DNA from: Felis catus
Taxonomy: Eukaryota
Length of the DNA: 64,000 bases
Reading direction: 5' to 3'
NCBI RefSeq assembly: GCF_018350175.1
Contig: NC_058368.1
Location: forward strand, 59,584,001-59,648,000
Shown piece after piece: positions 10,695 to 58,545 of this stretch; the first letter of the stretch is position 1, and each line of letters starts with the position of its first letter. The notes beneath the pieces were generated by a model. That model saw only the letters and a list, made by a program, of their open reading frames with translations. It was not told the DNA's origin and searched no databases. The translations under genes and the position numbers were made by a program.

Positions 10695-10875
10695 GGGACC
10701 CCTGGGGTGGCTCAGTCAGTTAAACGTCTGACTTTGGATCAAGTCATGATCTCGTGGTCCATGAGTTCAAGCCCTGCAATGGGCTCTGTGCTGATAGCTC
10801 AGAGCCTGGAGCCTAATTCATATTCTGTGTCTCCCTCTGTCTCTGCCCCTACCCTCTCTCAAAAATGAATAAACA
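10695..10875 (+). mobile_element. Can-SINE (middle element; its tail resumes at ~11109-11120)
   Basis: Head gggacccctggggtggctcagt; TSD aaatagaaagaaaaa at 10674-10688 and 11121-11135. Confidence 0.93.
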
Positions 10876-11093
10876 GGGGCGCCTGGGTGGTGCAGTCGGT
10901 TAAGCGTCCGACTTCAGCCAGGTCACGATCTCGCAGTCCGTGAGTTCGAGCCCCGCGTCAGGCTCTGGGCTGATGGCTCAGAGCCTGGAGCCTGTTTCCG
11001 ATTGTGTGTCTCCCTCTCTCTCTGCCCCTCCCCTGTTCATGCTCTGTCTCTCTCTGTCCCAAAAATAAATAAACGTTGAAAAAAAAAATTTAA
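10876..11093 (+). mobile_element. Young SINEC_Fc (inner element)
   Basis: CpG-rich near-consensus body; perfect TSD aaaaatgaataaaca at 10861-10875 and 11094-11108. Confidence 0.97.
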
Positions 11094-21846: not shown

Positions 21847-22064
21847 TTTTTTTTTTCATTTTTTTTAATGTTTGCTTTTGAAAGAGAGAAAGACATAGCA
21901 TGAGTGCCAGAGGGGCAGAGAGAGAGGGAGACACAGAATTCAAAGCAGGCTCCAGGCTCTGAGCTGTCAGCACAGAGCCCTATGTAGGCTTGAACTCATA
22001 AACTGAGAGATTATGACCTGACCTGAAGTCGGAAGCTTAACTGACTGAGCCACCCAGGCGCCCC
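21847..22064 (-). mobile_element. Can-SINE
   Basis: TSD cacaataggtaaggttt (from 21829) / cacagtagataagcttt (from 22065). Confidence 0.95.
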
Positions 22065-22163
22065 CACAGTAGATAAGCTTTAATGTTGTACTAGAAATGA
22101 AAATTAGTATTTTTTTAACTTTAACATTATTAAGCTTTATATTGGAAAACTATTTCTCGATGA

Positions 22164-22378
22164 GGGGCACCTGGGTGGCTCAGTCAGTTAAATGTCTGAC
22201 TCTTGAGTTTGGCTCAGGTCATGATTTCACTTTTCATGAAATGCAGCCCTGAATTGGGCTCCGTGCTGACAGCACAGAACCTACTTGGGATTCTGCCTCT
22301 CCTTCTCTCTCTGCGCCTCCCCCAGTCTCTCTCAAAATAAATAAATAAAATTTAAAACAAACAAAAACAAACCAAAAA
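22164..22378 (+). mobile_element. Can-SINE
   Basis: TSD aaaactatttctcga (22146-22160) / aaaactatttctgga after the tail. Confidence 0.95.
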
Positions 22379-33903: not shown

Positions 33904-34088
33904 TGGGACAGAGAGAGACAGAGCATGAACGGGGGAGGGGCAGAGAGAGAGAGACACACAGAATCGGAAACAGGCTCCAGGCTCTGAGCCATCAGCCCAG
34001 AGCCTGACGCGGGGCTCGAACTCACGGACCGCGAGATCGTGACCTGGCTGAAGTCGGATGCTTAACCGACTGCGCCCCCCGGTGCCCC
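33876..34088 (-). mobile_element. Young SINEC_Fc
   Basis: CpG-rich body; perfect 16-bp TSD gaaaatagtgattttt (33860-33875 / 34089-34104). Confidence 0.97.
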
Positions 34089-37750: not shown

Positions 37751-40210
37751 TGATAGCATGTAACTATTTCTTCACAAGTAACCTATAGTTTGTGCTATGA
37801 TCTATTATTTCAGTTCTCATTTCCAAGTCCAAGGTTTTTAAAATATCAGTGTATTTTCTACAAGAAAATATCTGAATATTTTCTCTTGTACCATTTTGCC
37901 TTAACAGTCTAGGTCCATAGCAATCCATCCAAATGAAAAGTTAGCCAGAATGCTTCATAGAGTAAGGGGGAGTTTGGGGTTATATTTCATTATACTTCTG
38001 AGATTTTGTAACAATATTTACCTGAGATTACTACATTTAATATGATGCTTTTCTCTAACTTAATTTTTACTTTCAAACTTTTGCTGTGTTTACATGCATT
38101 GCTCTTTTTAATCCCCACTTTAGTTTCCACTCTTCTCCCCATGTTTCAGATGAGAAAAATGCTTTTTAGTGGTATTAGTCCCTGAAATGTATTGTCATAA
38201 TCCTTCATCTCATTGTTCATTACCATTATTATATTCCTCATCCATCATTACCTATAGAAATATATTCTATGTTTGCATTAAACAAAAGCACGAGATATAA
38301 TCTCTGAACTGTTTCAAAAATAGAATGTCTGCTTAATGAAAATGAGGTTATATTTTCCAGGGTGAGCAATTTACAAGCAAAAAAAAAAAAAAAGTCAAAT
38401 TTCTTAACTTGAAGCCCTGGCTGTATTTATTCCAGACATTGGTGGTAATTCATTACAACTTAAGGCTGTCAAATTGTTTTTGAGATGGAAGCAGACATTA
38501 TACTTTTAATTTACAAGGAAGGTTCTGAGAATCCAAACTCAGAAATCAAGTTTATTCATTGGAAGGTGCCTTTTCAGCAGGTGGCAAGGGGTTCTCTCAG
38601 AGTCATTTGCTTTACTGGTAAAGCACATGCTGTTATATTAACAGCATCAACACATGAAAAATATTTTTTTAAAGAATCTCTATTAACATAAAGTAAATGG
38701 TTTCAGTTTTATTTAAAACAAACAAAATTGTGATAAAAACCAAATGTTGCCACTACACTGTATGATTTTGTTTCATCATGTTTGTTTTTCACTTTGATGG
38801 TTGGATTGAACAGTTTCCCAACACAACTAGTTGGCTCATATTTATCTATAAAGGGGAGAAAAGAACTCCCTCTGAATGGGACCACACAGGAAAATTCCCC
38901 TAGAAAGCTCTGAATCTTGAAACCCAGAATTGACTAAAGCCCAGAGTGATCCCTGTGCAGAAGTGGAAGAAATTGAAACCCACACTGGATGGAGTTTTCT
39001 CATCTACAATTTGTACATGCCACTTTTGAATATGGTATGTTCCTACCTCCAAACAACGTGTGTAGTCATGCTGCTGTAACTATCTACTGATTCTCTCTGC
39101 CTAAGGGATTAAACTCAATTACAGTCCAAAAGCTGTGTAATTTGGGAAGAATTTATCATATGAAACTAGAAGTTTCTTTTTTGTAAATATCTCATTAGTT
39201 TGTTATAGGAATCATATAATATTATGTGTAAAGTGCCTTTATACATAGTAGGTAATTAATATAATTTTATTACAGGATATTGAAAGTTGTAAAATGCAGA
39301 ACATGGTCTCTAATCAGAAATGGTATATTTCTGTATGTTCATAGGAAGAATAAAGTGTTAATTAATAAATAACATTTTAAATATCTAATAGGCAATTATA
39401 ATGGGTAATTTAAAATTACTCGTTACTTTGTTTCAGTCTTCTAGTATAAAAAAACAATTTCTACTCACTCAAAGACTTCTCCCATCAATATTATTCTTCA
39501 TCCTCCCCAGATGACAGCAATAAGCTCATAACAATTCCTTCTATGGATTCCTCCCTGGAGTACCAGTCTCATGTTTTATTTTATTCTCCTGGTAAATTCT
39601 CTTTTCTTGGGGTCATTGCTTTATCCTTTAATCATGACTACATATTATAAAACCATTTGCAAGCACTTATAATATGGAAAGTCTAGTTGTTACTCTACTT
39701 ACATAGTGGAATAGTAGGATCAAACTCCGTCTACATGCCTAATTATGTATATTTGAATTTAAAGGAAAAGATGGATAGACAGAGGAGAGGGGGTATGTGT
39801 TTGTGTGCCATGTATGGGTTCTAGGTGGTCCCTATAGTTTTCTTGTACAATTAAAAAGCAATATGTTAGAGACTCTACAGCTCAGTAATAATGTATAATT
39901 TACAGATTTGTATTCTAATAGAAGGGATAAAATATTATATATGTAATTTAACATCAATTGTGAAAAATTCTTTGTCTTACTGTATATTTTTTCTTCTAAT
40001 AACATTAAGTTTTTTATATACCCCAAATAACAATACTGAAAAATCATAACATATTCAAGGAATTTCTTCTCATATCTTGAGAAATATATAAGATGATTTG
40101 GTGACATTTAGAATTATGTTTGATTCAGTTGATTGAACATAAGGCTGGCATTCCTAAACATTTTAGATAGAAAATCCATTTAGATGTAAAGTATATGTAC
40201 TCTTAGTTTT

Positions 40211-40284
40211 TTTTAATTTTTTAAATTTTTATTTATTTATTTTGAAACAGAGCACACAAGCAGAGGAGAGGTGGGGGGGGGTGG

Positions 40285-40330
<46 letters not shown>

Positions 40331-40459
40331 CCTAAACAGGTTCTGTGCTAATATAAGCACAGAGCCTGATGGAGGGCTTGATCTCACGAGCCATGAGATC
40401 ATGACCTGGGCTGAAATCAAGAGTTGTACACTTAACCACCTGAGTTACCCAGGTGTCCC
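40211..40459 (-). mobile_element. Older Can-SINE
   Basis: TSD tactcttagtttt at 40198-40210 and 40460-40472. Confidence 0.96.
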
Positions 40460-40474
40460 TACTCTTAGTTTTTT

Positions 40475-40706
40475 TTTTTTTTTTTTTTAATTTTTTTTTT
40501 CAACATTTATTTATTTTTTTTGGGACAGAGAGAGACAGAGCATGAACGGGGGAGGGGCAGAGAGAGAGGGAGACACAGAATCGGAAACAGGATCCAGGCT
40601 CTGAGCCATCAGCCCAGAGCCCGACGCGGGGCTCGAACTCACGGACCGCGAGATCGTGACCTGGCTGAAGTCGGACGCTTAACCGACTGCGCCACCCAGG
40701 CGCCCC
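40475..40706 (-). mobile_element. Young SINEC_Fc (left arm of inverted pair)
   Basis: Near-consensus body with CpGs intact; body is the exact reverse complement of 40811-40996. Confidence 0.98.
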
Positions 40707-40810
40707 TCATGAAACATTTTTTAAACTCAATGCATATTAAAATATACGTAAGTGATGATAAATGTGAATGAGCGTACTTTTCATGTTTTGCTTTTAAAAA
40801 ACTAAGAGTA

Positions 40811-41032
40811 GGGGCGCCTGGGTGGCGCAGTCGGTTAAGCGTCCGACTTCAGCCAGGTCACGATCTCGCGGTCCGTGAGTTCGAGCCCCGCGTCGGGCTC
40901 TGGGCTGATGGCTCAGAGCCTGGATCCTGTTTCCGATTCTGTGTCTCCCTCTCTCTCTGCCCCTCCCCCGTTCATGCTCTGTCTCTCTCTGTCCCAAAAA
41001 TAAAAATAAAAACGTTGAAAAAAAAAGTTTAA
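40811..41032 (+). mobile_element. Young SINEC_Fc (right arm of inverted pair)
   Basis: ggggcgcctgggtggcgcagtcggttaagcgtccgac... near-consensus, A-rich tail. Confidence 0.98.
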
Positions 41033-41257
41033 AAAAAATGTTTCATGAGTATTAATATATAGACATAAGTCAAAAATATCAGAACTACCAAGAGTACAGT
41101 TTTCTAAAGTTTAAAATTATACAGTTTAGAAGACTACTTCAACACTTATTCTCCATCAAGTTTAGTGACAAATTAAATGAAGAAAGTAGACTATGGCCAT
41201 CTTATTCTTCTGTAATTATGGATGTCTGTGCATAAATTTACTCTGTATTCAGGTAAG

Positions 41258-41790
41258 CATTCAGTCACTAACTCAACAAATTCTGTTTGAAAATTTTTCT
41301 GGTAATCACTGCATATAAAGTGGTATAAGAAAAGTTCAGGGAGCATAGCAGCAAACAAGAAAAAAAGAGGAATATTAATAAAAAAATTTTTAGAGGATTT
41401 TAGTATCTTATTAGGCTGATTTGTTTTGTTTTCAAATTACCTGAAAATGAACTTGATTGAAAGTTGCTACTATTTTTTTTCTTTTCCACATTTACTGCTA
41501 CAGTCTTTTACTCAGTTATTTCTTAAGTATCTACATTTTACCATTCTGTACAACAGACAATGCAGTGTGGAAGAGGAATAAAAGGACACACCTTATGAAT
41601 TCATCACCTATTAAGGAGATAAAATCAATAATTTGGTTGAGAATTAACTGTGTGCAAGGATAGAGTTGTGAGAAAAAGGAGCATGAAGGTTGATTACTAC
41701 AACTTTTTGGTTTTTTTGTTTGTTAAAATGGACAGGGATGCCAATTATCATCGGAGGACATTGGTGATGAGTGGGCCTGCATAGGAAGAA
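41258..41790 (-). mobile_element. LINE-2 relic fragments
   Basis: cattcagtcactaactcaacaaa (antisense L2 3' tip-like) and a purine-rich L2-like stretch at 41620-41790. Confidence 0.4.
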
Positions 41791-43304
41791 CAGAACTCAT
41801 AGGAATGGCATAGATTAAAGGAAATAACTGGTGTCGGAAACTGCAGCACTGTACCCAAAAGTCTTTTCGAGCGCATTTCAGGCATCAAAATCAGCTTGTG
41901 TTTTCCAATTACTGTTTGAGCTCCCACAGAGATAAACTGTGAACTTCTCTTACCAGGGATTCAAATACAAGGGAAGTGGGTGCACTTTTAAAAGTGGAGC
42001 AGGTGTTTGTCAACCAAAGTAACTTGCTGGACCCCAGTGGAAGAGAGATGAGTTCAGCGCTTCAGAAAATGGGAGTGCTGATGGCTGGAGGGCCATAGTT
42101 ACCCACAAAATAGAGTATTCTAAGGGTTTTGTGAGAATCAAAGAACACACAAAATGAAACCAATGAGTAAGTGTTGTTTCTTTCACAGTTCTTATTTTGC
42201 AGTGTTTTCATTTCTTTCTCATTTAACATACCTGAATTTTATTCCGTTGTTCTTTTCAACCATTGTCTACACCATCCTAGATTAATGAATTTTTATTTCT
42301 CTATTTCCCAAATTTTATCGTATTTGTTGAAGGACCACTGCCTTTCGCATTGTTTTCCTCCTAGTTGAACAGATATAGTTAAATTGGCATTTCTATATGT
42401 AAATTCTAATATTGTACAGGAAGTATGCCTCCCAAAACAAAACATTTCAAAATATCATTTCAAAATATCATTTCAATATTATAATCTACACCCTGCTCAT
42501 AATTAAGATGATGTATGTTTTCTCCTGATGAACCCAATTCCCATCTACTTGCTTATCCCAGGGACAGGTAGAAACAATTTAAAATACTATTATGATTTCC
42601 CTTATGAGAACTGTTTTACTTGAGAAGTTTTTTGTTATAGCAGTTATATTACAGTGCACACTCTTATTGTCTTAATTTTTGTTTGTTTTTAGATTTAGGC
42701 CATAGTATTAGAAATACTAATCTTCTTTATGTATTTTGTCTTCAATTAACTTCTTTTTCTGATTTGATCTTCATTTGATTATAGTATATCAAATAATTAT
42801 GTAGCTATCTCATATTTGCATGTATGGAAGTTTCTTTCTTACCTCTGTTCTGGCAGGTGAAAAATACTTTGGCTGGGTATATTTCTTGATAATATATCAG
42901 TTTTTACGTTTCATCCTTACCGCTCTCCCTTTGTCTCTCCCTCCTTCCCTCCATCCCTTCCATTCATGCTGACTTCCTTGCTTCTCTTTTTCAATAAAGA
43001 TTAGTAAGACAGTTACCAAAACTGGAATGGGGTGTGTAGATAAGAATATATACATGGATCAAATCCAATTTCATAATTTTTATTTATTCTGATTATGTAA
43101 AATTCTCTTTATTTGTTGAAAATGCCTACTAAAGAGTTATGAAATGGTAGGGCTTAATGTCAGTGGCTTATTTTTATATTGCTCAAGCAAAAAAGGTTCT
43201 CTGTACAAGTATTGCAACAATTTTACACATTGGTAATTATTTTGAAATAAAACGAAATGTTGTGACATTAAGTTCTAGTTTTTATTTTTAAAGATGTAAT
43301 TCTA

Positions 43305-43514
43305 GGGGTACCTGGGTGGCTCAGTTGGTTAAGCATCCTACTTGGGCTCAGGTCTTGATTTCACAGTTCATGGGTTCGAGCCCTATATCTAGTTCTTTGC
43401 TGTCAGCCCCGAGCCCACTTCAGATCCTGTGTCTCCTTCTCTCTCTGCTATCAGAGAGATAGCTCATGCTATCATTCTTCCTCTCTCAAAAATAAACAAG
43501 CATTTAAAAAAATT
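43305..43514 (+). mobile_element. Can-SINE
   Basis: Perfect TSD aagatgtaattcta (43291-43304 / 43515-43528). Confidence 0.96.
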
Positions 43515-58018: not shown

Positions 58019-58235
58019 TTTAAAAGTTTTTAAATTGTTTTATTTATTTTTGAGAGAGAGAAACAGAGCATGAGTGGGGGTGGAGCAGAGAAAGAAGAAG
58101 ACACAGAATCTGAAGCAGGCTCCAGGCTCTGAGCTGTCAGCACAGAGCTGGCTGCAGGGCAGGAACCCATACACTAGGAGATCATGATCTGAGCCAAAGT
58201 CCTACACTCAACTGACTGAGCCACCCAGGAGCCTT
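58019..58235 (-). mobile_element. Can-SINE
   Basis: TSD attgttatttctt (58006-58018 / 58236-58248). Confidence 0.95.
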
Positions 58236-58319
58236 ATTGTTATTTCTTATACGTTTTCAAAAATGGATAGCCAGTAAATGGCATAAAATAATTACAATAA
58301 CTAGGATATATCAGATAAT

Positions 58320-58545
58320 CGGAGCGCACTGGTGGTTCAGTCAGCTAAGCTTCCAACTTCAGCTCAGGTCATGATCTCCCAGTTTGAGTTCCATCCACCT
58401 GGGGCTCTGTGCTGACAGCTCAGAGCCTGGAGACTGCTTCTGATTCTGCTGTGTCTCCCTCTTTCTCTGCCCCTCTCCCACTCGTGGTCTCTCTCACTCT
58501 TTCTCCCTCTCTCTCTCTCAAAAAATTAATAAACATTAAAAATAT
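58320..58545 (+). mobile_element. Can-SINE
   Basis: TSD actaggatatatcagataa (58300-58318) / actagaatatatcagataa (58546-58564). Confidence 0.95.

Follow-up and report, generated by a model that had tools for sequence, protein, structure and literature searches.

Two young CanSINEs stand head to head within the window (the whole 64-kb stretch analysed here) with their target-site duplications exchanged: the word flanking each element on its outer side recurs, reverse-complemented, against the head of its partner. The explanation we prefer, and regard as probable though well short of certain, is that two separate insertions were followed by an inverted-repeat crossover or template switch that flipped the spacer between them and made the two arms identical. 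The minus-strand element, SINE B, occupies 40475-40706 and the plus-strand element, SINE C, 40811-41032, their heads facing each other over a spacer of 104 bp (40707-40810); sequence reading together with a script returned the same coordinates that the initial annotation had given. SINE B consists of an A-rich tail (40475-40521, T-rich on the plus strand and unlike that of SINE C) and a body of 185 nt (40522-40706), and SINE C of a body of the same length (40811-40995) followed by its own A-rich tail (40996-41032); the boundary between tail and duplication falls within an A-run and is arbitrary by a few bases.

The left outer flank at 40460-40474 (TACTCTTAGTTTTTT, the L word) is the reverse complement of 40796-40810 at 15/15 positions, and the right outer flank at 41033-41048 on the plus strand (AAAAAATGTTTCATGA, the R word), which opens with the A-run of a TT/AAAA site, is the reverse complement of 40707-40722 at 16/16. 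The spacer is thus bounded by a minus-strand copy of the R word adjoining the head of SINE B and a minus-strand copy of the L word adjoining the head of SINE C, and between them lies a single-copy middle of 73 bp (40723-40795), unique in the genome and presumably inverted, i.e. read here as minus strand. Neither SINE B nor SINE C has a direct duplication of its own. When the spacer is flipped, as the initial annotation had proposed, the primed strand at each restored site reads TTTTTT/AAA, the sequence preferred by the L1 endonuclease. The A-rich tails of both elements adjoin outer duplication copies at TT/AAAA-type sites, and the 3' end of the L word at 40460-40474 is the T-run that would have primed on poly(A). 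The L-word match runs 3 bases further than the word itself and the R-word match 1 base further, but these extra bases, lying as they do in the G-run of a SINE head, are ambiguous.

Across the full 64 kb of the window, each orientation of the R word is present once, and the L word occurs twice forward (at 40198 and 40460) and once reversed (at 40796). Given the base composition of the window, the chance of finding the word at one fixed place is 1.2e-8 for the L word and 2.5e-9 for the R word. These probabilities, together with the exact matches at the element boundaries, rule out a chance origin of the crosswise matches, and the swapped-duplication observation of the initial annotation is confirmed as correct.

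The first forward copy of the L word (40198-40212, plus strand, an exact match) is the left target-site duplication of a third element, SINE A, which was absent from that annotation. SINE A is an older, diverged CanSINE on the minus strand (~40213-40459; the alignment matches 40459-40308 at 69.9%), thus ~70% identical to the young body. The second copy of the L word, at 40460-40474, serves both as the right duplication of SINE A and as the outer flank of SINE B, and with the copy in the spacer this makes three, two forward and one reverse-complemented, shared between SINE A and SINE B. The left nick site has therefore been used twice, by A and then by B: the right duplication of SINE A regenerated a TTTTTT/AAAA site, so that SINE B could enter at the same nick. 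Regeneration of L1 endonuclease sites by target-site duplications has been described for L1-dependent clusters (PMC3215922), and existing CanSINE loci are reported as frequent targets of felid CanSINEs (PMC4084570). SINE A also carries a (GA)n microsatellite of ~22 units (40286-40330), expanded from the polypyrimidine region of the element.

No stop-free stretch of at least 110 aa occurs within ~9 kb of the pair, and GC content around it is 0.30-0.36; the pair lies in non-coding AT-rich DNA. ARAGORN found no tRNA in 40150-41100 and Rfam gave no match in 38000-43500; SINE heads are usually too degenerate for such scanning tools. The felid CanSINE diagnostic motif TCCGACTTCAGCCAGGTC is exact in SINE B, in SINE C and in two other young copies of the window, i.e. 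4 matches against 0 expected. It corresponds to primer 3, described for the tRNA-related region of the felid CanSINE (PMC4084570).

Ordinary duplications are the rule among comparable elements. Direct duplications flank both of the window's other young copies (10876-11060 and 33905-34088). For a wider sample we took the first 20 listed of the 101 other genomic copies that contain a word specific to SINEs B and C (the lineage relatives), and 16 of these 20 have an exact direct duplication of at least 9 nt. Three more (L006, L013 and L017) have duplications that are imperfect or of low complexity and were judged by eye, bringing direct duplications of some kind to 19/20, while the remaining relative, L003, has no recognisable target-site duplication. 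Among the chromosome C1 matches listed are two close inverted pairs of young SINEs, one head to head with a spacer of ~315 bp (L022) and one tail to tail (L023), and all four of these SINEs have direct duplications. The window itself contains two older head-to-head pairs, 21885-22064 with 22164-22323 (spacer ~99 bp) and 58052-58233 with ~58321-58503 (spacer ~87 bp), whose SINEs likewise have direct, slightly decayed duplications in 4/4 cases. Since these controls keep their direct duplications, close head-to-head geometry alone does not make the swap.

Some peculiarities of these control elements are worth recording. (i) L003 (G000:C1:138574707-138574891, plus strand) is one of two other exact copies of the B/C body; its missing duplication could reflect a deletion at the target site, insertion independent of the endonuclease, or some other rearrangement of the site. 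(ii) The young SINE at 10876-11060 sits inside the A-rich tail of an older, like-oriented SINE (10695-10854), so that 10695-11060 forms a tandem array, a pattern reported for felid CanSINEs. (iii) With the pair under study, the window holds three head-to-head SINE pairs with spacers of ~87-104 bp (21885-22323, 40475-41032 and 58052-58503) among 29 SINE matches in 64 kb, for which a naive Poisson calculation by hand gives an expectation of ~0.35 per window; the excess may come from clustered AT-rich target sites on both strands, or from chance.

The bodies of SINE B and SINE C are identical at 185/185 positions with all 15 CpGs intact in each, and several A-run indels and one CG/TG change distinguish their tails. 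Both bodies read GGATCC where the two other young copies of the window read GGAGCC. In the same genome (2.43 Gb in 71 contigs) a 28-mer with this rare GGATCC variant occurs 103 times, against 54,841 times for its GGAGCC form. The exact 185-nt body has only four copies in the 2.43 Gb, namely B, C, L002 and L003, all on one chromosome, and the perfect first 100 nt of the young body occurs 5,691 times genome-wide. The sampled word-bearers show 0-13 differences from B/C and are heterogeneous at positions 66 and 85, and the GGATCC lineage is small and of mixed age. By our own arithmetic it makes up ~0.3-0.5% of very young copies, a figure obtained by noting that the first 100 nt are perfect in 3-5 of the 20 word-bearers sampled, scaling this to 103 and dividing by 5,691. 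Two of four exact copies would fall within 600 bp of each other at random with a probability of ~3e-6 (hand calculation).

Body identity combined with the rarity of the lineage indicates that B and C are not independent draws. The two elements are linked: their bodies were homogenised once inserted, or both elements stem from a single event. Tail structure was considered as a discriminator between conversion and a shared source and was set aside, as by our own reading 9 of the 20 relatives likewise deviate from the common proximal tail. Compared with their two sister copies, B and C show 0 changes at 370 body positions, 30 CpG sites included. At mammalian substitution rates, zero changes at 370 positions correspond to an age of the order of a million years or less, which implies that the pair is probably of very recent origin. 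With its SINEs unmutated, the pair locus may be polymorphic in cats or species-specific.

Inversion of the spacer between two inverted SINEs, the central proposal of the initial annotation, is supported by the perfect crosswise duplications at the element boundaries, by the canonical endonuclease sites, and by the direct duplications of the controls. As its cause the annotation had offered either recombination or a coupled double insertion; both fit the final sequence, which does not separate them. The identical bodies and the rare lineage lead us to favour an inverted-repeat process that also homogenises the arms, though both observations are compatible with a single coupled event too.

According to the reading we prefer, two insertions followed by a flip, SINE A would have inserted first, at the left TTTTTT/AAAA nick of one AT-rich target of 104 bp, and its right-hand duplication would have regenerated the left nick site. 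Much later a young SINE B' would have entered at this left nick in minus orientation, and a young SINE C' at the opposite-strand nick 73 bp rightward in plus orientation, each gaining a direct duplication (15-18 bp and 16-17 bp, respectively). The result would be two near-identical arms of 185 bp, head to head over 104 bp. A crossover between the arms, or a template switch during replication, would then have inverted everything between the exchange points and carried each inner duplication copy to the partner SINE. The same exchange, by gene conversion or arm homogenisation, would have made both bodies identical, while tails outside the exchanged part would have kept their own sequences. We infer the event order, the ancestral orientation and the homogenisation from the arrangement of the sequence, the orientation from the duplications alone. 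That the arms were earlier non-identical is suggested solely by the rarity of the shared variant.

A single arm exchange explains both the swap and the identical bodies and leaves the tails untouched. For the B-spacer-C unit a near-perfect hairpin is predicted, at -313 kcal/mol (z = -54 relative to shuffled sequences). Zero changes at 370 positions would require the two insertions, the flip and the conversion all to be recent, which is a tight schedule for the preferred sequence of events. A spacer of 104 bp is stiff for a classical crossover, so template switching may be the real route.

Among known systems the closest are retrotransposon recombination-mediated inversions (RRMI; Alu-RMI and L1-RMI), of which 49 loci ranging from 166 bp to 81 kb were reported between human and chimpanzee (Lee et al. 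2008, PMC2603318). The diagnostic given in that study is that the duplications are mismatched for each element and match crosswise, with young, highly identical elements favoured. The resemblance to our pair lies in the inverted retrotransposons of the same family at both breakpoints and their crosswise duplications, and extends to the youth and high identity of the elements and the short distances that were favoured there (PMC2603318). The differences are that the pair here is a carnivore tRNA-derived CanSINE and not an Alu or L1, and that its spacer of 104 bp is below the minimum of 166 bp in that primate set (PMC2603318). Further, chimerism of the elements is a hallmark in the primate study, whereas the bodies of B and C are identical and only their tails differ, so that the exchange point is not visible and no chimeric junction is demonstrable. 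The pair is a very small, very young carnivore example of this rearrangement kind, known from primates. In a literature search confined to sources outside subscription journals, no such inversion between carnivore SINEs was described.

Template switching at inverted repeats is reported to cause both arm homogenisation and spacer inversion, reversibly (Abraham and Hazkani-Covo 2021, PMC8604942). This Ripley-type switching shares with our pair the perfect arms with an inverted spacer, and it needs no classical crossover over a short stiff spacer. The cases described there differ in scale and setting: they come from yeast genes, with arms measuring 7-16 bp and spacers just a few bp long (PMC8604942), as against arms of 185 bp and a spacer of 104 bp in a mammalian germ line.

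The foremost rival is one coupled event, which we judge unlikely but deserving of real weight. It supposes two staggered double-strand breaks made by L1 ORF2p ~90 bp apart, on opposite strands and in the same cell. A SINE cDNA would be primed at each primary end, and the 104-bp piece released between the breaks, carrying a 3' overhang on either side, would be rejoined flipped; each cDNA would be ligated to the reciprocal end of the other break, and fill-in of the overhangs would produce the crosswise duplications. The strand geometry of this scheme, worked by hand, gives exactly the present sequence, including the A-tails that adjoin the outer flanks, the TTTTTT/AAA sites on both sides, and the 15- and 16-bp duplications shared between primary and reciprocal ends. 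Two unmutated SINEs from a lineage comprising <1% of recent copies would also fit one time and one cell, if the source were highly expressed. On the other hand, two RNAs from the same rare source would be needed, unless that source dominated the RNA pool of the cell, and the tails, differing by several indels and the one CG/TG change, show that the cDNAs are not faithful copies of one RNA molecule. The final sequence is, moreover, equally explained by the sequential route, and our search, subscription journals being outside its scope, found no germline case of two full SINEs bridging an inversion.

Exchanges between ORF2p breaks are known experimentally, and the locus would be a short-range, one-chromosome version of them. 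In L1 expression experiments two ORF2p-induced breaks exchange ends, giving reciprocal translocations with polyadenylated insertions and a duplication of 14-16 bp at each site (bioRxiv 10.1101/2024.12.14.628481). As described there, these products resemble our pair in the polyadenylated TPRT insertion at primary ends, in the endonuclease target at both sites, and in the small duplication common to primary and reciprocal breakpoints, 14-16 bp there and 15 and 16 bp here. They differ in joining different chromosomes in cultured or cancer cells, as against sites ~90 bp apart in the germ line, and in carrying L1 or mRNA cDNAs where our locus has SINEs; for the pair, simultaneity of the two breaks is hypothetical.

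A second rival accepts the two insertions but has both drawn, by chance and independently, from the rare GGATCC lineage; a simple crossover, with no conversion, would then have followed. The lineage has been active: elsewhere it has left two more exact copies (L002, L003) and others that are nearly exact (L012, L020, L021), and three local insertions mark the site as a hot target. Yet at ~0.3-0.5% of very young copies, the joint chance of drawing the lineage twice is of the order of 1e-5, and random placement of two of the four exact copies within 600 bp has the similarly small probability (~3e-6) given above; we consider this explanation highly improbable.

Least probable of those weighed, and very unlikely, is an assembly artefact, in which the true spacer orientation is the one that restores the duplications, assembly or polishing having turned it round. 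Such an error could have escaped short-read or k-mer steps, which are blind to orientation here as 0 31-mers differ between the two orientations. Against it, the contiguity of the assembly (71 contigs for 2.43 Gb) makes it almost certain that long reads covering the full 0.6-kb unit went into it, and the spacer occurs once in the genome; that single match also leaves no paralogous spacer copies to serve as orientation evidence. Both SINE junctions, furthermore, are real, to judge from word shares that are themselves orientation-blind. In contigs from Logan (k=31), 20 of 24 sequencing runs, from at least 9 studies, hold at least 0.97 of 241 sampled words, where 14 of the 24 runs are flagged as possible sources of this very DNA. 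An allele without B and C would miss 194 of 2,201 words (8.8%), and set against this expected loss the shares of at least 0.97 indicate that both junctions are real and widespread. Shares in the remaining four runs (X21-X24), which come from the same organism, are lower, at 0.71-0.86 compared with 0.97-0.99 for the 20 above; two of the four have larger contig sets, and these runs might represent another allele or a diverged haplotype.

Three further routes were rejected outright. Inverted duplication of one SINE at the DNA level is excluded by the tails, each distinct and each adjoining its own duplication at an endonuclease site. Recombination between SINE A and SINE C is excluded by the state of SINE A, which shows ~70% identity and no chimerism and still has a direct duplication of its own. 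L1 twin priming, to which ~85% of human inversions <2 kb are ascribed in a preprint abstract, likewise yields a product of the L1 machinery with inverted retroelement sequence in one locus; it inverts part of one element, however, so that only one poly(A) tail and one direct duplication result, and it is ruled out here by the two full-length SINEs, the two distinct tails and the fact that the inverted DNA is host sequence.

The pair illustrates that counting rarity across the genome (4 exact copies; 103 versus 54,841) can prove two neighbouring repeats non-independent, and this non-independence points in turn to arm homogenisation or a single event. With its SINEs unmutated, the locus may still vary within cats or between closely related felids, and would then be a natural test case. 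If the coupled event were true, the locus would be a germline fossil, matching at short range and in heritable form the exchanges between L1 breaks that are known until now only from translocations in cultured and cancer cells, and some 'recombination-mediated' inversions between young retroelements would never have been two-step. However it arose, a perfect inverted repeat of 185 bp (~230 bp with tails) around a loop of 104 nt is a potential fragile site, and the B-spacer-C unit, if transcribed, would form a long double-stranded RNA. As for the family at large, ~54,800 copies with the intact 28-mer and 5,691 with a perfect CpG-rich first 100 nt indicate that this genome has very recently gone through a very large burst of SINE insertion.
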